A stretch of 45,314 bases of DNA from an uncultured Candidatus Micrarchaeota archaeon (GCA_903832205.1 CAILAH010000063.1:1-45314), one strand, 5' to 3'. Numbered from the stretch's first letter, positions 18,561 through 30,082 are shown. Notes: generated from the letters alone by a model not told the origin. A program made the numbers and translations.

Positions 18561-19049
18561 CTATTTCTTTTTCCCTTTTCTTCCCTTTCCCTTCTCCTCT
18601 TCTCTTTCTTCTGCTTTTACCCAGGGCGTACGATCAGCCACTGTTGAGGAAAAATCTTCCCTTTTTAATTTGATATCTTCTACTATGCCTTTTTCTACAT
18701 CAAGAGAAGGGCCCTTTTCTTCTTCCGCAATATATTTGTTGCTCTTTTCCACATGCGTGTTCTGAAGCGCATCCTGCGTCCCTGGATTAAGATGGAATCC
18801 CACCTTGCTTGAGATGGTGCGGTCATAAACATCCCTAATCATGGTCTTCCTTTCCAAGTTGCTCTCGTCGATTATTCGCTCTCCAGCTGTCCTGTCGCCG
18901 CTTGCCCTTTGCCTAAGCGCTTTCACGAGAAGCATCATTTCCTCAGGGCTCAAGTTAAGCCTGCCCAATAGGAATCTTTCAGTATCTTTTGAAATCTCCA
19001 CTTTAACCTGTTTTTTTTCTATTACCGATCCTTCAACCTGGAATATCAA
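18561..19049 (-). CDS. Hypothetical charged protein with a basic C-terminal tail
   Basis: 162-aa ORF with SD-like AGGTGA upstream; ends KGKGRKGKKK. Confidence 0.68.
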   Translation of the reverse strand: MIFQVEGSVIEKKQVKVEISKDTERFLLGRLNLSPEEMMLLVKALRQRASGDRTAGERIIDESNLERKTMIRDVYDRTISSKVGFHLNPGTQDALQNTHVEKSNKYIAEEEKGPSLDVEKGIVEDIKLKREDFSSTVADRTPWVKAEEREEEKGKGRKGKKK

Positions 19050-19117
19050 TCATATCACCTTTGTATGTTAATTGCATATGGGGATTTATATACCTTTTCC
19101 TGACGGCAGAACCGCAA

Positions 19118-19870
19118 TTATTGCAGTGCCGCGGCAGCCTCCCCGTAGTCCTTCACATCATAGTCAAACTTGTCCTTTATCGGGTTGAACAGGTAATCTA
19201 TCATCCCGATTGCAGCGCCGTTTGCGTCATAAACCTTGAGCGAGCCATCTTTCTGGAGCTCAATCTTTTCAGCCCTTTGTGAGAACGTGTACTCAGAAGC
19301 AATGTTGCTTTTCCCATTCCAGATTGCGAGGATGAGTATCTTGCCGTTCTTATCGAGAAGATAGATGGTGTCCCTCTCCTCGTCAATTGCAACGTCCGCA
19401 ATATTCCCTATCCTGCCCCTAAGCTGCAGCATGTTCTCCTTATCATTTTCCGTATCGCTCAAGGCAAGAAACAGCATGGAAACCCTGTCGTAAGGGATGA
19501 ATATCACCTTGCTTTCAATGAGATTTTTTGCAACAATAACCAGGCTACCTTTTGTGCAGGCGGTTTTGATTATCTCATCGTTCTTTCCGAAATAATCAAA
19601 CTTCGGGTCAAATGAGCCCTTGAATTCTTTTCCGTTCCACTGAAGTTCGACGTATACTCTTCCGTCTTCAGCATTATAGCCGCACTTAATATTATCATAA
19701 ATCGGGTGCCAGTTGGCATAGCTTACGTTCTTGTAATTCATCTCAACCTTCGCGGGCGGCTCGGCCGCCGGCTTGGCTTTCTTGAACCCCTTTGCATCAG
19801 AACTGCAAGGCGTGAATGCGATGGCTGCAGAAATGCCCAATACTGCAATGCCATAACCTATTTTATTCAT
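19118..19870 (-). CDS. Hypothetical exported protein, paralog of 17881-18531
   Basis: Signal-like N-terminus (AAIAFTPCSS), beta-rich body, TATATAAA about 30 bp upstream. Confidence 0.72.
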   Translation of the reverse strand: MNKIGYGIAVLGISAAIAFTPCSSDAKGFKKAKPAAEPPAKVEMNYKNVSYANWHPIYDNIKCGYNAEDGRVYVELQWNGKEFKGSFDPKFDYFGKNDEIIKTACTKGSLVIVAKNLIESKVIFIPYDRVSMLFLALSDTENDKENMLQLRGRIGNIADVAIDEERDTIYLLDKNGKILILAIWNGKSNIASEYTFSQRAEKIELQKDGSLKVYDANGAAIGMIDYLFNPIKDKFDYDVKDYGEAAAALQ

Positions 19871-19916
19871 AACCGTCAGATAATTAAGACCGTTTCCCCT
19901 TTATATACCTTTCTTT

Positions 19917-20021
19917 TGACAGCCCAAGGGGGAGCGCCGCATTTTCGCAGCGGCGAAAAGCGACGCCTTTTGGCTCTCAGCCAAAAGAGCGCCCCCTTAG
20001 TCCGTCACCGCCCAAACCCCC
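19917..20021. repeat. Palindromic element A, free intergenic copy
   Basis: Matches 27799-27903 at 100 of 105 nt. Terminal imperfect inverted repeat TGACAGCCCAAGGGGG...CCCCCTTAGTCCGTCA encloses two hairpins, followed by a CCGCCCAAACCCCC tail. Confidence 0.92.
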
Positions 20022-20026
20022 CGTCA

Positions 20027-21877
20027 TTACATGTTACGTATGACCGGAATCCCAAGGATGTGCAGGCACGCCTCAAGGGCCTCGGCATATTTTTTCACGA
20101 GCCTTTTCCTGCTCTCGCTCACGCCCTTTTCCTCGCCGATAACCCTGCAGGCCGCATAAAACGAGTTGAATGCTGAGCACAGCTTTATTGCATAATCTGC
20201 CATGTTCTGCGGCGCATAGGTGTCCACCGCCCTGGCGCACACCTCGGGGAATTTTGCAATCTCCCGTATGAGCTGCAGCTCGCTTTTCTCCGTGAACACC
20301 AATTTTCCGTCCCAGTAATCGTCAATTGTTTCCTTGTCCAGGATGTGCACCGCGCGCGCATATGCGTACTGCAGGTAGGGGCCGCTGTCGCCCTCAAAGC
20401 TGAGCGCCTTTTCCCAGTCGAACACCAGCTCCTTCTCCGGGCCGAGCCTGATGAACGAGTACCTGATTGCGCTAATCCCGACAGCCTCGCTTATGCCTTT
20501 CTTCTCCTCCTCGCCGTAATCCCTGAACTTATCGCTGATGAGCGCGTGCGCCCTGCTCACACTCTCTTCCACCAGCTCATCCGCTGAGAATCCAATCCAA
20601 GTCCCCTTCCTGCCAGATAACTTTTTCCTATGAGAGGTCCTTTCCGCCTTGAGCGTCGCATGCCCGTATGAGATGTGCCTGTAATTGTTCGCCTCCTCTT
20701 TGAACCCGGCCATATCCAATGAAACTTTTATGACGTTCTGCGGGTACTCCTGCTCGACACCAATAATATTGACGACCTTTTTCGCATTGCTGAAGTTTGC
20801 CTGCTGCCCCTTTGCATTGCTCGTGAAAAGCAGCGCGCCGTTCTTCTGCATTGAGAACTTGTCAAACAGCAATTCATCCTTAATGATGCCCAATTTCCAC
20901 ATCTGGAACGCAATATCTTTTGCCGTATAGGTCGCAACGCCGTTCGCCCTCACCAGCACCTTGTCCGCATCCGTGAGATGCTTGAACATGGGGTGCCCGC
21001 TCAGCTCAATGATCTTGCACCCCGCATACTTGCTGTCCCCGCCGGCAGTTTTGAGTATTCCCTTCTTCTCCAGTAAGTCAAGCCCGTTCCTCATTAGCTT
21101 CGCGTGCACGATATCGCTTTCCCACACGAGCACGTTCTGAAATATGTTCAATCTCTGCAACGTAATCTTTTGCGCCTCAACGCACTGCACAGCCATCTCC
21201 CTGCCCATGCGCGATACCGTCTCGTCGCCCTCCTCCAGCTTCCTCATCAGCTCTTCCACTTCCCTCTTTACATCCGCGCTCTCCTCATACATCCTGGCGG
21301 CTTCAACATACTTCTCGCCGAGCCACATATCATATTTCTTCCCCTTCTCAACCGTGGCACCGCGCATGCACGCCCACAGGCTCTGTGCCACCTGCAGCCC
21401 CAGGTCGTCGATGTAGTCCATCCTCACCACATCAAAGCCGCCATAGTCAAGCAGGTTGGCAATGCAGTCGCCTATAATCCCATTCCTCAGATGCCCGATG
21501 TGCAGCGGCTTGTTCGGGTTAACAGAAGGGTACTCGACAATGACCTTAACGCCGTTCTTTGCAAACCTGTGCTCATACTTCCCTACAAAATCCGTATAGA
21601 ATTTTTCAGTGAGCGTGAAATTGATATAGCCGTTCGCATTCTTCATCGTATAATGCCCGCTCTCCAAATGCGGCATAATCTTCTCCGCAATCTCTGCGGG
21701 CTTTGCCTTTGCATCCTTTGCAACCCTGAACGCTATCCTGCACTCAACATCAACGCCCTCGACTCCCCCGTCCTGCACAAGGTTGAGCACCTCCTCCTTT
21801 GCAATCGCTATCCCGTACTCCTTCTCAAGCGCCACGCTTGCCTTCCCTGAAATTTCCTTCTTGATTTCAATAATCAT
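20027..21877 (-). CDS. argS: Arginine--tRNA ligase
   Basis: VEYPSVNPNKPLHIGHLRN (HIGH), DDLGLQ, TYTAKDIA, LSGRKG, FEGDSGPYLQYAYARA, FNSFY. Confidence 0.97.
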   Translation of the reverse strand: MIIEIKKEISGKASVALEKEYGIAIAKEEVLNLVQDGGVEGVDVECRIAFRVAKDAKAKPAEIAEKIMPHLESGHYTMKNANGYINFTLTEKFYTDFVGKYEHRFAKNGVKVIVEYPSVNPNKPLHIGHLRNGIIGDCIANLLDYGGFDVVRMDYIDDLGLQVAQSLWACMRGATVEKGKKYDMWLGEKYVEAARMYEESADVKREVEELMRKLEEGDETVSRMGREMAVQCVEAQKITLQRLNIFQNVLVWESDIVHAKLMRNGLDLLEKKGILKTAGGDSKYAGCKIIELSGHPMFKHLTDADKVLVRANGVATYTAKDIAFQMWKLGIIKDELLFDKFSMQKNGALLFTSNAKGQQANFSNAKKVVNIIGVEQEYPQNVIKVSLDMAGFKEEANNYRHISYGHATLKAERTSHRKKLSGRKGTWIGFSADELVEESVSRAHALISDKFRDYGEEEKKGISEAVGISAIRYSFIRLGPEKELVFDWEKALSFEGDSGPYLQYAYARAVHILDKETIDDYWDGKLVFTEKSELQLIREIAKFPEVCARAVDTYAPQNMADYAIKLCSAFNSFYAACRVIGEEKGVSESRKRLVKKYAEALEACLHILGIPVIRNM

Positions 21878-21886
21878 TTGAGCACC

Positions 21887-21990
21887 TCACTGATGGGGAA
21901 CCTAGGTTCCCCCTGTGCATCTTCGCCGTGCGAAGATGATGCATCATTCGGCTCCGCCGAATGCATGTCGTGTGGTCTACACCCCTTCCT
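21887..21990. repeat. Palindromic element B (long form), free copy between ogg and argS
   Basis: Matches 27461-27564 at 101 of 104 nt; CACTGATG-hairpins-TCGTGTGGTCTACACC. Confidence 0.92.
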
Positions 21991-22020
21991 ATTTACAATG
22001 TATGGTCCACACGTTTCCAT

Positions 22021-22650
22021 TTATTTTAACACCTTGTTTGTCTTGAAATACCACAGGTACATATCTAATTTGCCGTTAGGCATTTTAGCCTTTTTCGCAA
22101 TGCCTTTTAATATACCCTCAATTTCCATATATCTTTGCCTGTTCATGGAAGTGAAATGCCCAATCAATCCATACTCCCTCATGAGCCTTAATACATGCAA
22201 ATCGATAATCGCAACGTCCTTTCCCACACCTACATTCCTGAGGAAATGGCTGGCCTCCTTGTATCCCATGCCTTTCACGTTCTGCACGAGCCACTCGCGC
22301 GCCTCATCAACCTCTGTAAAATCCATAATTATGTCTTTTAATTTCCCGTCGAACCTTCTCGCGCCGATGATGAATTCCGCCCTCCTGTTGTAAAACCTGG
22401 AGCCCGCAGCCCTCAATTCAGCAGCGAGCTTTTTCTCAGGCGTTTTTGCAAACCCCTCATAGCCGAGCGCATTCTGCACGCGCATCCCCATCTCCGCGGA
22501 TGTATTTGCAGTTAGTATGCAGAAGCACAGCTCGGAAAACCATTTCTTCTCCCCTGCGTTAAGCATCCCCTGAAAATCCTCCCACCTATCTTTTATTGCT
22601 TTTATTGTTTCATCGTCAGTGCCAGCAATCCTTTTAAGCAGTGGGTCCAT
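22021..22650 (-). CDS. ogg: 8-oxoguanine DNA glycosylase/AP lyase (HhH-GPD, Ogg2 type)
   Basis: FSELCFCILTAN, RFYNRRA, REWLVQNVKGMGYKEASHFLRNVG, AIIDLH, LDMYLWY, C-terminal VLK. Confidence 0.93.
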   Translation of the reverse strand: MDPLLKRIAGTDDETIKAIKDRWEDFQGMLNAGEKKWFSELCFCILTANTSAEMGMRVQNALGYEGFAKTPEKKLAAELRAAGSRFYNRRAEFIIGARRFDGKLKDIIMDFTEVDEAREWLVQNVKGMGYKEASHFLRNVGVGKDVAIIDLHVLRLMREYGLIGHFTSMNRQRYMEIEGILKGIAKKAKMPNGKLDMYLWYFKTNKVLK

Positions 22651-22709
22651 CGTAAGCTTATGCCTCAAAACCTTTTTAAAGCGGAATTAAGAGAATACTT
22701 ACGACACAA

Positions 22710-23423
22710 ATGAAAATGCTCAAGCCCAAAAGGCAGACAATCCGCAGGCATTCTGCCTGGGACGAGTTCGACCGCAGGAAAACAAGAAGGGAGCGCAATA
22801 TTGACGAGTACCTGTGCATTGTCAACCACTTACTGTTCGATTCGGTCCGCAAGTCTTATGCTGCGGGTGTAAGGGAGTCGCTGGCTGAGGGGGCAAACGT
22901 CGATGCCAAGGGAGATTATAACCTGACACCGCTCATGATTGCTGCGCAGCGTGGCGATGTCCTGATGTCAGAGCTTCTCCTTTCATTCAATGCAAACATA
23001 AATCAGGGCGACAAGTACGGCCTCAGCGCATTGATGTTCGCTGCGATGAAGAACCGCCTCGATGTTGCCCTGCAGCTTCTGAAAAAAGGCGCATACGTGA
23101 ATGCGGAGAGCGAGGACGGCAACACTGCGCTCATCTTTGCCGCCATTGAGGGCAACGTGAGCATGGCGCGGCTCCTCATCAGCAATGGCGCCTCAGTAAA
23201 CCAGGTCAACGATGATAAGGTTACGACCATAATGCTCTCGTCCTACAAAGGCCACAGGGGCATGGTCCTGCTGCTTGTGGAGAGCGGGGCGGACGTGAAC
23301 CTATTGGATAACGAGGGAAATTCCGCACTGGCATACGCGCAGCGAAAACACCATTTGGAAATCATGAATATACTAATCAATGCGGGCGCACTCTACGTCG
23401 TCAAAAAATCCGGAAAGGCGTGA
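22710..23423 (+). CDS. Ankyrin repeat protein with a basic N-terminal extension
   Basis: About five ankyrin repeats (TPLMIAA, SALMFAA, TALIFAA, TTIMLSS, SALAYA; L...GA.vN). Confidence 0.92.
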   Translation: MKMLKPKRQTIRRHSAWDEFDRRKTRRERNIDEYLCIVNHLLFDSVRKSYAAGVRESLAEGANVDAKGDYNLTPLMIAAQRGDVLMSELLLSFNANINQGDKYGLSALMFAAMKNRLDVALQLLKKGAYVNAESEDGNTALIFAAIEGNVSMARLLISNGASVNQVNDDKVTTIMLSSYKGHRGMVLLLVESGADVNLLDNEGNSALAYAQRKHHLEIMNILINAGALYVVKKSGKA

Positions 23424-23425
23424 AA

Positions 23426-23887
23426 TTATTCTTCCCTCTGCGCCACGCCAATGTCTTTTACCCTTTTCTTTATTTCCACTTCGCTTGGCTTAAGCCTGAA
23501 CGCCAGCGGCACTCCTGTCTTTCGGTCCATGGAATCGTCGGCATTGCGCCTCAATTCACTCAGCATGGACCGCCTGAGCTCTGTCTTTATTTCGGTCCCG
23601 TCACTTCTAATTATGGTGCCGTCCCTGAGCATTTCCCTCAGTGCGGCGTATTGCTCTGGCCCTGACTTGAGGTTCAGGGGCACGGGCTTCCCGTTCTCAT
23701 AAAATTCCTGCTTGGGAACATTATTGGTTTTTATCGTATAAGCAGCATTCCCCCACGTGAGCGTAAACTCGTGGGCATAGTTAACCTGCTCTTTTTCCTT
23801 CTCCTTATATACCTGCGATCCCTTGTCTACCATTTCTATCCCCAATAACAATTGGGTATATGGCTTTAAATATTTTCCGAAATCCAT
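23426..23887 (-). CDS. Hypothetical protein
   Basis: 153-aa ORF filling the gap 20 bp downstream of gatE on the same strand; no recognisable motif. Confidence 0.6.
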   Translation of the reverse strand: MDFGKYLKPYTQLLLGIEMVDKGSQVYKEKEKEQVNYAHEFTLTWGNAAYTIKTNNVPKQEFYENGKPVPLNLKSGPEQYAALREMLRDGTIIRSDGTEIKTELRRSMLSELRRNADDSMDRKTGVPLAFRLKPSEVEIKKRVKDIGVAQREE

Positions 23888-23907
23888 GTTTTTTAATCAG
23901 ACGCGAA

Positions 23908-25680
23908 TTATTTCTTCCCAATCAGCTGCATGAGTTCCTCAGCCTCAATCCTCAGCCTGTATTTTGCAAGTATCTTTTGCGCATCCCCGCCCTCTTCTTC
24001 AATTATTTTCTTGAGTGCTGCTCCTGTAATCCTCCCAAGCCCCTTTTCCTTGATTATCACATCAATCCCGGCTTTTGGGTTTTTGCACAATTCTCTGATA
24101 AGCTCCTCAATCGCCTTTTTTGTTATCCTGTTATGCGCATACTGCTGCAGCACCTCAATTAACCGTTCGTCATCAATCCTGTCAACGGGAATCCCTTCCC
24201 TTGAAATCGTCTTGAGCGAGCTCACGAACGTAACCGCGGCAACCTTGGCGTCAACGCCCATCCCAACCGCCCTGTTATATGCGCCAAGATGCGGCGAGCG
24301 CAGCAGCTGCGGCGCCAAATCCTTATTTGTCTGCCCCTCCAGCTCGCGCAGCACATCCTCTGGGTTTCTCGGAGCATATTTCTCCGATTCCCTAATCAAA
24401 TCCTCTGTTACGATGATGGGCTCCACATCCGTTTCAGGGTACATCCTTGCGCCAGTGGGCATGGGCCTCATGAACTGGCTCTCCCCGTTCTTGAGCGGCT
24501 TTCTTGTCTCGCTGGGGATCTTTTTCATGTACGCCCTCTCAACAACGCTCTGGAACGCGAGCCTCATCTTCTCGTCAAAATCTCCAATCAGTATTGCGTA
24601 TGAGCTTCTCAGGCCGGCCTTCAATTCCTTCTCAACCGCATTCTTGTCAACGCCGTATTTCTCGAAATCCTCATCACCGTGAATCATCCCGCCGAACCCA
24701 AACGTCCTTGCATAGTCCGCAAGCTCCGTCCCGTATCTCCTGTTCTCGTACAATTCAAAGCCGAGCATTCCCTTCAATCCCGGAAGCAGTATGCCAATTA
24801 CGCGCGCCCCATTTCCTATCGCTTTTGGAATGAATCCCTTACCGCTCTTGAACAGCTCGGTCAAATCAACATAATCCGGCTCTTCAGGGTTTTTCGGCTT
24901 TTCCTCCGCAGGAATTTTCCTGATGAGCTCAATCAGCCTCTCCTGCCTCAGCACTTCCCTGTTCACGATCAGCGGGATGTCATCGAGCTCCTGCACGCCC
25001 TTGATTTCACAGCGCACACCGCCGTCCACAGAAATATTCATGTCCTGCCTTATTGTCCCGATTCCTCTCGCAGCCATCCCGGTCATGCGGAGCATCATCC
25101 CGATTGATTCGGCAACCTCGCGCGCGTGCTCCCCGTCCTTAATGTCGGGCGCGGTGGCAATCTCTATGAGTGGCACACCCAATCTGTCAAGCGAAAACCT
25201 CGCGCTCCCCTTTTCCTCCAAAATCCCTGCGCTTTCCTCCTCAACGAACAGCGCCTGGATTCCTACCTTTCCACCTTTGCAATCTAAGTGCCCGCCAAGC
25301 CCCACAAGCCCGGACCTTTGGAACCCGGATGTGTTGCTCCCGTCAATCACAATCTTCCTCATGAAGAAAATCTCATCCGCGATTGCCATGCGCATGTGCC
25401 TTGCAACCGCAACTGCAACCTCCAGCGCAGCAACATCCGCATCGTGGGGCGGCTCCTCATCTGTCTCCACAAGGCATGAGTTGTCATATACAGAATACAC
25501 AAAATTTGCGCTCTTGAGCTCCTCCCTTACGGCGGCAATGTCCTTCTCGCCCATCTCGCTCTTCACCGCGTGCAGTCTCCGTTTTATCTCGCCTTTCACA
25601 ATGCCCGCAGAATGGGATGGGCACCTGCAGAACAGCTTGCCCGTGTTGAGCCTCTGGTGTATTTCAATCCCGACCTTCAC
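23908..25680 (-). CDS. gatE: Glutamyl-tRNA(Gln) amidotransferase subunit E
   Basis: KVGIEIHQRL..GKLFC.C, DEEPPH, RKIVIDGSNTSGFQRS, LDRLGVPLIEIAT, RGIGTIRQD, GARMYPETD; GTG start. Confidence 0.95.
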   Translation of the reverse strand: MKVGIEIHQRLNTGKLFCRCPSHSAGIVKGEIKRRLHAVKSEMGEKDIAAVREELKSANFVYSVYDNSCLVETDEEPPHDADVAALEVAVAVARHMRMAIADEIFFMRKIVIDGSNTSGFQRSGLVGLGGHLDCKGGKVGIQALFVEEESAGILEEKGSARFSLDRLGVPLIEIATAPDIKDGEHAREVAESIGMMLRMTGMAARGIGTIRQDMNISVDGGVRCEIKGVQELDDIPLIVNREVLRQERLIELIRKIPAEEKPKNPEEPDYVDLTELFKSGKGFIPKAIGNGARVIGILLPGLKGMLGFELYENRRYGTELADYARTFGFGGMIHGDEDFEKYGVDKNAVEKELKAGLRSSYAILIGDFDEKMRLAFQSVVERAYMKKIPSETRKPLKNGESQFMRPMPTGARMYPETDVEPIIVTEDLIRESEKYAPRNPEDVLRELEGQTNKDLAPQLLRSPHLGAYNRAVGMGVDAKVAAVTFVSSLKTISREGIPVDRIDDERLIEVLQQYAHNRITKKAIEELIRELCKNPKAGIDVIIKEKGLGRITGAALKKIIEEEGGDAQKILAKYRLRIEAEELMQLIGKK

Positions 25681-25732
25681 TCCTTATTCTCCTCGCAAAA
25701 TGCTTTAAATATTACGCATTATTAATACATCC

Positions 25733-26359
25733 ATGTCTTCAGACCAGCTCATACCGACTCGCATGGAGCTCATGAAAATCAAGGACAGGAAGAAGCTTGC
25801 CGAGAGGGGGCACAAACTGCTTAAGCAGAAGCGTGACGCCCTGATAATCGAATTCTTCAAGATATATAACCGCGCCAGCGATATGAGGGAGAGGCTGAAC
25901 GGGGAGCTCTACAAGGCATACATGCAGATGGCCACTGTTGAGATTCGCCACGGCCCGCTAATGCTCAACGCCGCCGCTGAAGGCATGCCCGAGCCCTATG
26001 TCATAGAGGTCAGGGAAAGGAACGTGATGGGAGTCCGCATACCCGAAGTGAAGAAGGAAAAGAAGGAAACCGGCTATGCCTACAGCGTCATGACGACCGA
26101 TTACAGCATGGATGAGACCGTTGCCGCGTTCCAGAAAGTGTTAACGATGATTCTTGAGCTTGCGGAGACCGAAAATGCGCTCAAGAGGATAATCAAGGAC
26201 ATTGAGAAGACCAAGAGGCGCGTCAACGCGCTCGAGTACATTCTTATCCCGAGGCTTGAGGGGCAGGGAAAGCTGATTACGCTCAGGCTTGAGGAGATAG
26301 AAAGGGAAAGCTTCTTCGTGCTCAAGCAGCTGAAAAGAAAGGCAAACGCCAACGGCTAA
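25733..26359 (+). CDS. atpD: A/V-type ATP synthase subunit D
   Basis: PTRMEL, RGHKLLKQKRDAL, NVMGVRIP, IEKTKRRVNALE..LIP, LEEIERESF. Confidence 0.95.
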   Translation: MSSDQLIPTRMELMKIKDRKKLAERGHKLLKQKRDALIIEFFKIYNRASDMRERLNGELYKAYMQMATVEIRHGPLMLNAAAEGMPEPYVIEVRERNVMGVRIPEVKKEKKETGYAYSVMTTDYSMDETVAAFQKVLTMILELAETENALKRIIKDIEKTKRRVNALEYILIPRLEGQGKLITLRLEEIERESFFVLKQLKRKANANG

Positions 26360-26415
26360 TTCTGTTGCATTATCTATTTTTCAACCGCACAGGAGAATAA
26401 AACAGAAAGAAATAG

Positions 26416-27432
26416 TTAGCCTGTCCTGGCCCTCTGGTAGCATTGGTTCTGCCAGTCCCTGTAGAGCGGGTCGGTTATCTTGTCGCATTCTGACCTTAGC
26501 GTCTCATTATCAACTATGCTGTCCGCGAAGCAGCCCCAGATATAGCCGGACTCATTTATGTCCTGGCAGATGGACGGCATCAGGTTAATCTGCGCAACCC
26601 TCACCTTGCAGTATGCAATGTCCTTTGCAGCGGAAGCAAACGTGCCGCTATATTCGCAGAGGCTCGGGTCTTTGAGTTTTCCCGCAACATCGATAAGACA
26701 GTCCTTCCTTGTCTTGTAGGAGGTTATGGGCAGGCACTCGGAATAATTGCCGCTTGAATAGGCGACACTCGACTGGCAGTCCTCCCTGTAGATTTGGTCA
26801 CTTATCTGGTTGCATATGTTTCCATTCGTTCCCGTAATCCTCGCGAACGTCTTTATGCACTCTTTCCTGGAGGCGTCATATTGCTCATAAACATAGCACC
26901 TGTAGGGGTCCATCAGCAGTATTGAATTGCACGCGCTCTTGTCCATGCTTCCGGAAGTAATCGCATCACACGCCTTGCTGCTGTTGGTCTTGAATGCGAA
27001 TTTCAGCAGGCATTCGCTGTTTGTGCCGCAGTAAAACAAGTCATTTGAGGCAAGCGCCTTGCACAATGACTGGTCCGGGTCGTTGGCGCACATTGAGAAC
27101 CCGACGCTGATCTGGCAGTTGTGCCTCATCTCATCATTCACAATCCCGCTACAGTTAGTCGCAGTGAAATAACAGGAGTCCTTAAGTGAGGCATCCTCAA
27201 TATAGGAGCATAGTGACTTGTTCAGCAGGCAGGCATCCACATCCGCCCTCGTAAGCCCCCTGCACGGCCCGACCACAATCTCCTTTGTTACGTTTTCCAC
27301 TGTTTGGTTCTCCGTCAGGTTTTCCGTCACATTTGGCTTTGGCGGCTTTGGCGGCGTGGGCGGCTCAAAGCATCCGGCCATGAACGAAAACAACAATACT
27401 GCGATAATGAACACGAAAATAGCTCCCTTCAT
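26416..27432 (-). CDS. Cys-repeat lipoprotein (C-x2-I-x6/8-C units)
   Basis: Lipobox-like FMAGC, Pro-rich linker, repeats such as CSYIEDASLKDSC, CNQISDQIYREDC, CLPITSYKTRKDC; many N-x-T sequons. Confidence 0.78.
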   Translation of the reverse strand: MKGAIFVFIIAVLLFSFMAGCFEPPTPPKPPKPNVTENLTENQTVENVTKEIVVGPCRGLTRADVDACLLNKSLCSYIEDASLKDSCYFTATNCSGIVNDEMRHNCQISVGFSMCANDPDQSLCKALASNDLFYCGTNSECLLKFAFKTNSSKACDAITSGSMDKSACNSILLMDPYRCYVYEQYDASRKECIKTFARITGTNGNICNQISDQIYREDCQSSVAYSSGNYSECLPITSYKTRKDCLIDVAGKLKDPSLCEYSGTFASAAKDIAYCKVRVAQINLMPSICQDINESGYIWGCFADSIVDNETLRSECDKITDPLYRDWQNQCYQRARTG

Positions 27433-27460
27433 GCCTTACCCTTCGTTAATAATATTTAAA

Positions 27461-27564
27461 TCACTGATGGGGAACCCAGGTTCCCCCCGTGCATCTTCGC
27501 CGTGCGAAGATGATGCATCATTCGGCTCCGCCGAATGCATGTCGTGTGGTCTACACCCCCTCCT
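27461..27564. repeat. Palindromic element B (long form), free copy upstream of tRNA-Glu
   Basis: Near-identical to 21887-21990; bracketed by AATATTTAAAT at 27451-27461 and 27568-27578. Confidence 0.92.
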
Positions 27565-27646
27565 GCGAATATTTAAATTTGTTATCTACTCAAAGAACGT
27601 CATAGGGCTCCTGTAGTCTAGCCCGGTTAAGGACATTGGCCTCTCA

Positions 27647-27777
27647 AACACTGATGGAAGGGGGCACATCCCCCTTCCCTCGTGTGGCGTCAACCTATGG
27701 TTGACGACTTGCACAAACCTCGTTTGTGCAATGGTCTACACCTAACCCCCTGCGGGTTTGGGTTGTACTAAAGAGAA
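27647..27777 (+). other. tRNA-Glu intron 1 (position 37/38, 131 nt) containing an element B variant and module C
   Basis: Relaxed BHB: C32-U35 pairs with AGAG 27772-27775, bulge AA^C. CACTGATG begins at 27649 and TGGTCTACACC ends at 27742. Confidence 0.85.
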
Positions 27778-27798
27778 CGCCGAAAGCCCGGGTTCGAA

Positions 27799-27927
27799 TC
27801 TCAGCCCAAGGGGGAGCGCCGCATTTTCGCAGCGGCGAAAAGCGACACCTTTTGGCTCTCAGCCAAAAGAGCGCCCCCTTAGTCCGAGACCGCCCAAACC
27901 CCCAATGGTTTGGTGGTATTTCGAAAA
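27799..27927 (+). other. tRNA-Glu intron 2 (T-loop position 59/60, 129 nt) made of element A plus a module C hairpin
   Basis: UUCG (54-57) pairs with CGAA 27922-27925, with bulges AA^U on both sides. 27799-27903 repeats 19917-20021. Confidence 0.85.
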
Positions 27928-27987
27928 TCCCGGCAGGAGCTTTCTTATTCTTTTATTTCTTGCTGCAGATACCCTAGTGGTGAGCCT

Positions 27988-28293
27988 ATGGGTATAATAC
28001 AAGAGTTCAAGGATTTCCTGAACGAGTACAAGGTTGTTGGCCTTGCCGTCGCTTTCATAATGGGCGCCGCCACAACAACACTCGTGCAGTCGCTTGTCAA
28101 CAGCATCATAATGCCAGTTATCGGCATATTCCTGCCCGCGGGTGACTGGCAAACGGCAACGATAATGGTTGGCTCGGCAAAAATAGTGTGGGGCGCATTC
28201 GTTGCGGCACTGATTAACTTCATCATCATCGCGGTCGTGATTTTCCTGATTGCGAAGATAATGCTTAAGGAAGATAAGGTCTCGAAGAAATAA
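27988..28293 (+). CDS. mscL: Large-conductance mechanosensitive channel (short form)
   Basis: IQEFKDFL...VVGLAVAFIMG.A...LVQSLVNSIIMP, WGAFVAALINFIIIA; SD GGTGA before ATG 27988. Confidence 0.93.
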   Translation: MGIIQEFKDFLNEYKVVGLAVAFIMGAATTTLVQSLVNSIIMPVIGIFLPAGDWQTATIMVGSAKIVWGAFVAALINFIIIAVVIFLIAKIMLKEDKVSKK

Positions 28294-28354
28294 GGCATTT
28301 TTCTTGCCCTTTTTTTTGATTTTCTTTATTAATTTCACGCGAGATTATAGCCTT

Positions 28355-29719
28355 ATGGTAAAAGTCGTTTCCACTTACGGCCCAATGCTTGAGCAGAAAG
28401 GCCTTCTAGAATCGGTGTGCACCGAAAGCGACGTCCTGCGCATTAACATCTCGCACACCACCATTGAGCAGGGCATACACCAGTATAATCTTCTCAGAAA
28501 ATTCGGCAAGCCCATCATGATAGATACCTGCGGGCCCGAGGTGCGCATCCGCACAAAGGAGAAATTCCTGCTCAAAAAAGGCCAGCACATAAAGATAGGC
28601 AGGCCAAACTCATCGGCGAAGATATGCCTGGACCAGGACATCTATCCTCACATGAAGGCCGGTGAGATGATTTATTTCGACGATGGAATGGTGGCAGTTT
28701 CGCTGGTATCAAAATCGAAGGGCCTGATGGAGTTCCGCACGCACGAAGATGTTGAGATAAGGGACCATATGGGCGTCAACATGAAGGGGCGCTCGTTCAA
28801 CTTTCCCGCGCTCAGGAAATTCGACATTAGCGTGCTTCGCTCCACTGCGCCCACATTTGTCGCGCTCTCATTTACCAGGACGGCAGCGGACATAAAGGAG
28901 GCGCGCAGGCACACCGATGCAAAAATAATCGCGAAGATAGAGAATTGGGACGGCGTGAAGAACATAGGATCGATAATGGATGAAGCGGACGGTGTCATGA
29001 TTGCCCGTGGCGACCTGGGCGTTGAGGTCCCGGCCGAAGAGGTTCCCATAATACAAAAGGAGATAATCGAGCTTGCAAACAACCACGCAAAGCCCAGCAT
29101 AGTCGCAACCCAGGTGCTATACTCAATGGTTGAGCACCCGGTCCCCACGCGCGCGGAGGTGAGCGACATCGCAAACGCAGTGCTTGACGGCACCGATGCA
29201 ATCCTGCTTTCCAACGAGACCGCAGTGGGAAAATATCCGCTGCAGGCGGTACGCGAGGTGAAGAAGGTGGGCAAGCGTATCGCATCCCACGTCTGCACGA
29301 AAATCCAGGGAAATTTGCACATTAAATCCCTTGACACGGCATCTGAAATTCTCAGCAACACCATCTACTCAATAGCATCCAAAAGGGAAATCGACAAGAT
29401 AGTCGTGATAACGCGCTCCGGCTACAACGCGCACATGCTTTCCAGGTTCAAGCTGCCCAAGCCGCTGCTTGCGATAACCACTGAAGAAAAGGTCGCGCTT
29501 GAGCTCAACCTGCTCTACAATGTCACCCCAGTCAAGTGGGAAGCCCTGCCGAAGAAGAACGTCGTGCCAAGGGCTGCCCTATTCTGCCTTGAGCACGGGC
29601 TCATAGATGAGACAGACACGGTGGTGTTCACCGCGGCGGTGAGGACGCAGAAGAAGGACATAATGAACCTTATCGAAGTGCACGACATGAAGGACATGCT
29701 GCAGTATCTCGAGTTTTGA
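28355..29719 (+). CDS. pyk: Pyruvate kinase
   Basis: STYGP, RINISH, DTCGPEVR, IIAKIEN, DGVMIARGDLGVE, ATQVLYSM, PTRAEVSDIANAVLDGTDAILLSNETAVGKYP. Confidence 0.96.
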   Translation: MVKVVSTYGPMLEQKGLLESVCTESDVLRINISHTTIEQGIHQYNLLRKFGKPIMIDTCGPEVRIRTKEKFLLKKGQHIKIGRPNSSAKICLDQDIYPHMKAGEMIYFDDGMVAVSLVSKSKGLMEFRTHEDVEIRDHMGVNMKGRSFNFPALRKFDISVLRSTAPTFVALSFTRTAADIKEARRHTDAKIIAKIENWDGVKNIGSIMDEADGVMIARGDLGVEVPAEEVPIIQKEIIELANNHAKPSIVATQVLYSMVEHPVPTRAEVSDIANAVLDGTDAILLSNETAVGKYPLQAVREVKKVGKRIASHVCTKIQGNLHIKSLDTASEILSNTIYSIASKREIDKIVVITRSGYNAHMLSRFKLPKPLLAITTEEKVALELNLLYNVTPVKWEALPKKNVVPRAALFCLEHGLIDETDTVVFTAAVRTQKKDIMNLIEVHDMKDMLQYLEF

Positions 29720-30014: not shown

Positions 30015-30082
30015 CGCCTCGTCGGTTTTGCCTTCGGCAAAATCTCTGCAGCAAAGAGCTGCAGATTTCCTCCTCGGCGCTT
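30015..30082. repeat. Palindromic element D whose right arm duplicates the tRNA-Ser 3' end
   Basis: CGCCTCGTCGG...CCTCCTCGGCG encloses hairpins TTTTGCC-TTC-GGCAAAA and TCTGCAGC-AAAGA-GCTGCAGA. TCCTCCTCGGCGCTT occurs at both 29985-29999 and 30068-30082. Confidence 0.75.

Follow-up and report, generated by a model that had tools for sequence, protein, structure and literature searches.

Two look-alike stretches of DNA, one lying between genes and the other inside a tRNA gene, are probably copies of a small non-coding insertion element of Micrarchaeota, here called element A, which occurs in intergenic position or as a tRNA intron. Both lie in the window, i.e., the whole stretch of 45,314 nucleotides that was analysed, which is part of contig C63 of a genome (G000) that is 82% complete and comprises 1.11 Mb. 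Alignment of relatives shows that the foot of the element's hairpin must pair, the sequence of its two middle pairs being free. That a helix is required is genuinely supported by the paired differences between the two copies, although these differences probably represent inherited variants that were joined by recombination and not fresh compensatory mutations. Below, L numbers denote copies (loci) of the family, G numbers genomes, and C numbers contigs of G000; G001 and G002 are congeners, G007 and G008 are genomes of the same family, and G040, G045, and G060 belong to another genus. The copies and parts of element A in the window are as follows.

19917..20022, plus strand: free copy of element A, one of five genome copies with 97-100% identity
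19917..19920, plus strand: 5' strand of the terminal stem, TGAC, identified by covariation; left target repeats in relatives end here
19921..19932, plus strand: invariant 5' head arm, AGCCCAAGGGGG, (nearly) invariant columns in alignment A3
19933..19991, plus strand: apical cargo, two TTTT...AAAA hairpins with an AGCG tetranucleotide on either side; genome-specific
19992..20003, plus strand: invariant 3' head arm, CCCCCTTAGTCC, identified by sequence conservation
20004..20007, plus strand: 3' strand of the terminal stem, GTCA, identified by covariation and alignment
20008..20022, plus strand: invariant tail, CCGCCCAAACCCCCC, unpaired here; right end of the mobile unit
27799-27903, plus strand: second copy of element A, inside intron 2 of tRNA-Glu(CUC); stem TCTC/GAGA

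The free copy is flanked by two minus-strand ORFs (19118-19870 and 20027-21877), and the stop codon of the latter is only 4 nt away. A 40-nt core was matched at 19928-19967 without mismatch and at 27810-27849 with one mismatch (0.00 expected by chance), and a repeat search paired 19920-20021 with 27802-27903 at 97% identity. In an alignment of all five genome copies (A4), the two window copies differed at five positions: 19918 (G in the free copy, C in the intron copy) and 19919 (A/T) in the 5' strand of the stem, 20005 (T/A) and 20006 (C/G) in its 3' strand, and a single interior position, 19965 (G/A). The terminal C-run has six letters in the free copy and five in the intron copy. Four of the five differences make up the two middle pairs of a 4-bp stem, TGAC/GTCA versus TCTC/GAGA, and both stems span 91 nt (19917 to 20007 in the free copy). 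The probability that at least four of five differences fall within 8 stem positions of 105 is 7.1e-5. The initial annotation had pointed out that four of the five differences are paired and that both stems span 91 nt, which is borne out by alignment A4 and by this clustering. It had also proposed that the stem pairs better on the minus strand; the folding energy of element A was indeed -54.9 kcal/mol (z = -3.6) on the minus strand and -43.9 kcal/mol (z = -4.5) on the plus strand, because two fixed A.C/C.A mismatches turn into G.U pairs. Finally, it had described the free copy as keeping one half of a hairpin that is complete in the intron. This holds as well: the tail CCGCCCAAACCCC pairs with downstream GGTTTGGTGG in the fold of the intron copy only, and its complement was absent downstream of the window's free copy.

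All family copies share the layout TNNC-AGCCCAAGGGGG-(loop or cargo)-CCCCCTTAGTCC-GNNA-CCGCCCAAACCCC, are non-coding, and measure 54-170 nt. The head hairpin consists of the 4-bp foot TNNC/GNNA followed by AGCCCAAGGGGG...CCCCCTTAGTCC with three fixed mismatches; the tail is invariant and unpaired, and the apical loop is the variable part. Judged from relatives, the mobile unit begins with the stem T at 19917; in these relatives, a 4-nt AGCG loop takes the place of the apical cargo. The 59-nt cargo occurs in this genome only inside heads, and a metagenome contig that carries another family member at another locus skips exactly 19933-19991. Besides the two copies on C63, full copies are present on C51, C49, and C14 (one each), and a divergent copy is present on C10. 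The C49 and C14 copies have two additional hairpins between foot and tail, and C14 767-922 (L135) displays a paired length change in the inner stem, where one G is lost from a G-run and one C from a C-run. Hairpins of the form TTTT(T), 3 to 5 nt, loop, complement, AAAA(A), which constitute the cargo, number 48 in the genome versus 0-2 in shuffled genomes; many lie in or beside tRNA genes (e.g., 19941-19986 and 30025-30042). A stretch of C24 (~19630-19817, L137) looks by eye like a C/D-box-like small RNA with two ATGATGA and two CTGA boxes, behind which three hairpins and then a solo tail CCGCCCAAACCCCCC, without a head, are found.

Element A belongs to a Micrarchaeia-wide family characterized by the head hairpin and the tail. 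BLAST among 60 relatives matched only the last 30-47 nt (84-100% identity, 8 genomes, 6 families), and a degenerate pattern scan of species genomes yielded 75 loci, 73 of them archaeal and mostly labelled Micrarchaeota. The two bacterial matches lacked the head and are therefore not members of the family. In these (L092 and L116, from Bacteroidota MAGs), the 24-nt pattern is part of another structured region, where CTGCCCAAACC pairs with upstream GGTTTGGGCA. The same pattern was found in 118 metagenome stretches, 80 of which were fetched, and in no viral contig. The non-redundant set comprises 144 copies (79 from genomes and 65 from metagenomes), a count for which de-duplication wrongly merged at least one tRNA copy (L109) that is distinct. 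Of the 151 genomes of the class, 26 were matched by a covariance model made from 67 short-loop copies; they carry 1-12 copies each and represent 12 of 30 families. Neither of the two congeners and two of the eight same-family genomes were among them. Within the genus, flanking genes share only 73-79% identity, against a near-invariant head and tail. Rfam gave no match at the gathering score over the window and none on element A or B with E values up to 10 (19800-28000), and models of self-cleaving ribozymes did not match. A literature search for Micrarchaeota/DPANN tRNA-intron repeats and for the motif strings, with subscription journals outside its coverage, retrieved no description of the family. 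A weak TPP-riboswitch-like match on the minus strand of the window (24884-25004; 24.8 bits, the gathering score being 54.3; E value 0.16) is probably due to chance.

The requirement for pairing emerged from covariation in the foot. Among 65 distinct short-loop copies (alignment A3), one middle pair was GC in 51, CG in 10, AU in 3, and another combination in 1, and the other middle pair was UA in 28, AU in 18, CG in 15, and GC in 4 without any other combination; the remaining pairs were essentially invariant. The covariation score was 0.180 versus 0.038 in shuffles, and none of 500 shuffles reached 0.180, a count that is not a probability because the alignment rows are related. When the partner was slid as a control, the score dropped to 0.04 or less. 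All four stem pairs are kept in 133 of the 144 copies (74 of 79 in the genome set and 59 of 65 in the independent metagenome set). Over these 144 copies, pair 2 is GC in 121, CG in 16, AT in 5, TA in 1, and other in 1, and pair 3 is TA in 67, AT in 44, CG in 28, GC in 4, and other in 1. Since the scan pattern left three stem letters free and excluded the 5' strand, the pairing was not selected by the search. That one pair takes all four Watson-Crick forms, with only one deviating copy, is strong comparative evidence that pairing is required. At the outer pair, wobble variants occurred as T.G three times and as C.A five times, and the wobble changes at variable sites indicated no preference for either strand. 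The covariation and the full pairing in 133 copies uphold the earlier suggestion that the structure is under selection. The accompanying suggestion that the ends are templated by the target is not supported: a single target, the T-loop position 59/60, hosts GAC, GCC, GTC, or CTC stems, and in the 16 copies for which flanking duplications reveal the target, the stem letters are unrelated to it.

Comparison with relatives provided evidence for mobility. The C49 copy is absent from the syntenic spacer of the congeners G001 and G002, where the empty-site orthologues are only 66-79% identical and exact boundaries are hence unreadable. In the tRNA-Glu orthologues of G001 and G002, the same two positions are occupied by introns that have other contents and lack element A, and in another genus the tRNA-Glu(CTC) gene is intronless (G040), has the canonical intron only (G060), or bears the element (G045). 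Exact direct repeats of 11-48 nt flank 18 of 137 testable copies, two of which are doubtful (L243, a tandem copy, and L082), giving 16-18 of 137, versus 1 of 137 in a control with the right flank reverse-complemented. The exact repeat lengths are 11, 11, 15, 15, 16, 16, 17, 19, 20, 23, 23, 29, 31, 38, 47, and 48 nt. Left repeats end no more than 2 nt from the T of TNNC; right repeats start 0-104 nt past the tail. Because the right repeat begins 2, 4, and 0 nt after the tail in L063, L208, and L211, respectively, the unit runs from this T to the C-run. Among 13 comparable cases, the filler that separates the tail from the right repeat is diverged target sequence in 5, so that the duplication is longer than the exact repeat there; in the other 8, the filler is unrelated. 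Parts of tRNA genes also served as targets: a stub is duplicated in L083, L097, and L067, and in L202 the duplication covers the final 11 nt of a tRNA. In 10 of 16 targets the last base is A, often as part of AA, which recalls the T-loop. Copies within one genome have common right-hand extensions of differing lengths.

In G000 itself, no flanking duplication was found at the three testable free copies (19917, C49, and C14), and the C51 copy lies at a contig end. An empty site for the window's free copy was not found in relatives, in which the match starts only from the ORF stop codon onward and the neighbouring gene differs, and metagenome contigs from four DNA runs (19000-28500; 150-400 nt, depth 2-4) contained no element-free allele. 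Two free copies of G000 are sense and two are antisense to the flanking genes; in other genomes, where 300-nt flanks were available, the orientation is too noisy to use. The half-hairpin had been taken as a hint that the free copy came from an intron-like composite. Such an origin is unsupported, as duplication-bounded copies end 0-4 nt past the tail (L063, L208, and L211), and it is further disfavoured by the tail, which is without a partner in 41 of 42 non-tRNA copies versus 13 of 37 tRNA copies. Since the target duplications place the end of the mobile unit at the tail, the free copy would not be a decayed intron, and the reverse direction, from free unit to intron, appears more likely.

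Two metagenome contigs carry orthologous insertions (L182 and L194) just past codon 5 of a gene, with 15-16-nt repeats that are identical within a contig and differ from one contig to the other, a pattern suggestive of concerted change or of selection for identity. At L203, also on a metagenome contig, the target duplicated on both sides retains an 18-codon minus-strand ORF, and the differences between the target copies are mostly synonymous-looking.

The intron copy belongs to a tRNA gene that consists of the following parts.

27607..27941, plus strand: tRNA-Glu(CUC) gene, unannotated, with two introns; found by in silico splicing and then ARAGORN, with orthologues in G001 and G002
27607-27646, 27778-27798, and 27928-27941, plus strand: tRNA-Glu exons, from in silico splicing
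27647..27777, plus strand: intron 1, 131 nt, position 37/38; holds a relative of element B, CACTGATGG...TGGTCTACACC
27799..27927, plus strand: intron 2, 129 nt, T-loop position 59/60; contains, in this order, element A (27799-27903), the tail complement (27907-27916), and the T-loop complement TTCGAA (27920-27925)

ARAGORN recognized tRNA-Glu(ctc) after in silico removal of 27647-27777 and 27799-27927, and neither ARAGORN nor Rfam detected a tRNA in the unspliced window. Intron removal thus gives a canonical cloverleaf for the 27799-27903 copy; the copy at 19917-20022 lies between two ORFs, and bulge-helix-bulge (BHB) flanks are absent around it. In the fold of intron 2, the T-stem leads into a helix between the T-loop TTCGAA and the intron TTCGAA (TTCG/CGAA), followed by a 3-nt AAU bulge and the 3' strand of the T-stem; the junction gives rise to two branches, the element foot and the tail hairpin, and the 5' AAT is located at a three-way junction. 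We predict from this geometry that 27799-27927 is an archaeal BHB/hBH intron, which an epsilon2-type enzyme of the host may cut. A 390-aa splicing endonuclease encoded on contig C13 matches the ARMAN-2 epsilon2 enzyme (4fz2_A) over its full length with an E value of 1e-120, and the ARMAN-2 epsilon2 endonuclease is described as cutting a relaxed 59/60 hBH intron in vitro (PMC3239211). A BHB within the head itself was rejected as a candidate; two 3-nt loops face each other there without the 4-bp offset.

The same arrangement recurs in the family. In 28 of 79 copies, which represent 18 anticodons and 14 amino acids, ARAGORN called a tRNA spanning the site of the excised element; one further call (L096) was rejected, and among the 28 the 3' exons of L081 and L090 are doubtful. 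The tRNA copies all have the same orientation as the tRNA. A T-loop-like left flank is present in 61 of the 144 copies, and in 36 of these 61, partners for the T-stem and for a 4-bp helix, together with a bulge of 2-4 nt, lie within 130 nt. In the 36 BHB-type copies, the bulge is AAT in 34 and its 5' counterpart is AAT in 33, and the helix covaries (TTCA/TGAA in 26, TTCG/CGAA in 5, TTCA/TGGA in 3, TCCA/TGGA in 1, and TTCG/CGGA in 1). A tail complement lies within 30 nt in 24 of 37 tRNA copies versus 1 of 42 non-tRNA copies. The family would also account for the many tRNAs that standard finders miss in such genomes (ARAGORN finds 15 in 1.1 Mb).

Of the 15 tRNA genes that ARAGORN detected in the 1.11 Mb of G000, 11 have introns of up to 181 nt; many others are probably hidden by multiple or non-canonical introns, like tRNA-Glu here. 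In G045, the 5' parts of three different tRNAs (L038, L043, and L046) end at the T-loop and continue into the same ~245-nt composite, in which two heads are arranged in tandem. The next 350 nt showed no 3' exon, and these loci may represent very long introns or split tRNA genes.

The distribution of stem letters bears on how the paired differences arose. All four free copies of G000 have a GAC/GTC foot, and the intron copy has CTC/GAG, the stem that G007 and G008, both of the same family, have in their T-loop copies. Orthologous insertions retain their stem letters (L182/L194, L070/L071, and L082/L121), and similar cargos are found on different feet (L057 versus L108; L062 versus L070/L071). 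The only informative part common to the window copies is the 59-nt cargo (19933-19991) with AGCG at both sides. These alignments make it more likely that the four paired differences go back to two old stem variants around a common interior than that four compensatory mutations arose recently. The common interior could have come from recombination between copies or from a second insertion of the cargo; recombination would be read only from the distribution of the differences, and the invariant head hides the boundary of any exchanged tract. That the differences arose in place, by two compensatory double substitutions selected for the stem after one copy had derived from the other, seems improbable. 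Although the stem pairing is clearly selected and a single other difference separates the window copies, 4 substitutions in 8 positions versus 1 in 97 have a probability of 7e-5 under an even spread, stem letters are constant between orthologous copies of different genomes, and the CTC/GAG of the intron copy already exists in the T-loop introns of G007 and G008.

The best explanation, and in our judgement a probable one, is that element A is a non-autonomous insertion element whose foot must pair and which has two old stem variants sharing an interior. This small non-coding element, with five near-identical copies in G000, would insert at the DNA level, with a preference for positions just behind A-rich sites (e.g., TTCRAA). 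It could persist in tRNA genes where the epsilon2-type splicing endonuclease of the host can excise it, and elsewhere it would persist only at harmless sites, such as spacers adjoining stop codons. Many different tRNAs carry it at T-loop position 59/60, a frequent location, where additional 3' sequence pairs with the tail and the T-loop and thereby produces the BHB geometry with AAT in both bulges. A search for the responsible enzyme gave no match to TnpB (PF07282) or Y1 transposase (PF01797) in the 82%-complete G000. The reverse transcriptase domain RVT_1 was present in 19 of 151 genomes, including 2 of the 26 element-bearing ones (about 3 expected by chance). No larger autonomous partner was found beside the G045 or G104 copies; the sequence common to three G045 loci is only ~245 nt long, and the G104 copies at contig ends are 150-nt elements. 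The long and variable duplications with one exact end do not fit classical DDE/HUH transposition, and they resemble target-primed insertion, without a visible reverse transcriptase. More specifically, the head-tail unit might be a non-autonomous mobile element of a kind new for archaea, insert via a target- or hairpin-primed route from its nearly perfect-hairpin strand, and be the direct source of the Micrarchaeota T-loop introns, with archaeal BHB introns being gained at TTCRAA landings as the spacer behind the unit evolves pairing to the tail and the T-loop. We put this forward tentatively and regard it as doubtful; if true, the primed route would yield an exact end at the hairpin foot and variable duplications of 11-48+ bp.

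The head and tail could instead be a functional structured RNA, i.e., a binding site for a conserved protein or a stable or circular intron-derived RNA, with the free copies as RNA genes or cis-elements. About 45 nt are invariant across 12 families in which neighbouring genes are only 70-79% identical, the three fixed mismatches are conserved and unrepaired, and the fold is good (z = -4.5). A functional RNA is nevertheless unlikely in view of the patchy distribution (26 of 151 genomes, neither of 2 congeners, and 2 of 8 genomes of the same family), the variable and non-syntenic positions of the copies, the target duplications at some of them, the occurrence of free copies in both orientations (two sense and two antisense in G000), and the lack of an Rfam match.

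We also weighed a SINE-like or hairpin-primed retro-element, whose minus-strand RNA or ssDNA, ending at the hairpin foot, would prime its own target-primed copying, and judge it to be quite improbable. It would account for the stronger minus-strand fold (-54.9 versus -43.9 kcal/mol, with G.U replacing A.C), the precise end (the left repeat ends at the T of TNNC), the 0-104 nt of filler past the tail with duplications of 11 to 48 nt, and the right-hand extensions of unequal length within a genome. However, RVT_1 was not found in 24 of 26 element-bearing genomes, the filler is diverged target and not element in 5 of 13 comparable cases, the wobble changes favour neither strand (T.G 3 and C.A 5 at the outer pair), and every tRNA copy is sense to the tRNA. 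A derivative of the IS200/IS605 or REP/RAYT type, in which an HUH tyrosine transposase moves a single-stranded DNA hairpin, is very improbable. Elements of these types make no target duplication, whereas 16-18 copies have one, and neither a Y1 transposase nor a TnpB domain was found in G000, even though the imperfect hairpin with fixed mismatches, the strand asymmetry, and the absence of terminal inverted repeats would suit such a derivative.

Among known dispersed repeats, MITEs and bacterial REP/BIME sequences are short, structured, and non-coding and lie mostly in spacers near gene ends. Element A resembles them in being short, structured, dispersed, and mostly located in spacers at gene ends. 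It differs in having no terminal inverted repeats (TNNC-AGCCC... and ...CCCAAACCCC are not reverse complements) and no fixed length of the target duplication (11-48 nt, and none at three G000 copies), in its low copy number (1-12 per genome), and in doubling as a predicted intron. SINE-type retroposons have one precise and one ragged end and variable-length target duplications. Element A likewise has variable-length duplications, one precise end, and one ragged end, but reverse transcriptase was not found in most of its hosts and it has no A-rich tail.

The closest published case appears to be that of the transposed BHB introns of Thermoproteales, near-identical sequences of which are reported in many tRNA genes, including non-canonical positions (PMC4090602). 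Their gain is thought to occur at the DNA level by a mechanism stated to be unknown in that article, which summarises earlier work (Fujishima et al., 2010, Mol Biol Evol 27:2233). The likeness lies in a shared sequence in many different tRNA genes. In contrast to these introns as described there, element A is a defined unit with mapped ends, occurs also outside tRNA genes, has 11-48 bp target duplications, and is found in Micrarchaeota, which have another type of endonuclease. The 59/60 hBH introns of ARMAN-2 (PMC3239211) belong to the same phylum and agree in intron position and in the relaxed bulge-helix geometry; the 59/60 intron published there is 13 nt long, and the account of it mentions neither a repeated element nor free copies. 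In Caldiarchaeum subterraneum, a tRNA-Thr gene is reported to be disrupted by a 1.8-kb recombinase-encoding element (PMC3293823). That case also ties intron gain to a mobile element and has duplicated tRNA stubs, such as those seen here at L083, L097, and L202; the published element is 1.8 kb long with a recombinase, in contrast to the 54-170 nt of element A, which is non-coding and for which no partner gene was found. The route by which archaeal tRNA genes acquire introns has been an open question ever since different Thermoproteales tRNAs turned out to have similar introns. The present family spans three states, namely, inserted with duplications, free in spacers, and as an intron with full BHB geometry, and these three states of one defined unit make a path from insertion to intron testable.

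The window also contains a second repeat, element B, whose layout is CACTGATGG...three hairpins...TGGTCTACACC.

21887..21990, plus strand: free copy of element B, 97% identical to 27461-27564
27462..27567, plus strand: copy of element B in the tRNA-Glu promoter, identified by repeat match and flanking direct repeat

The free copy adjoins the start of ORF 20027-21877. The promoter copy is flanked by an 11-bp direct repeat, AATATTTAAAT, at 27451-27461 and 27568-27578; G001 and G002 have AATATTTAAAT once, and the element B insert is absent from them. A shorter relative of element B is located in the anticodon-loop intron of tRNA-Glu in both G000 (27647-27777) and G002 (L149), and its 16-nt 3' motif occurs at at least 10 other places in the genome.
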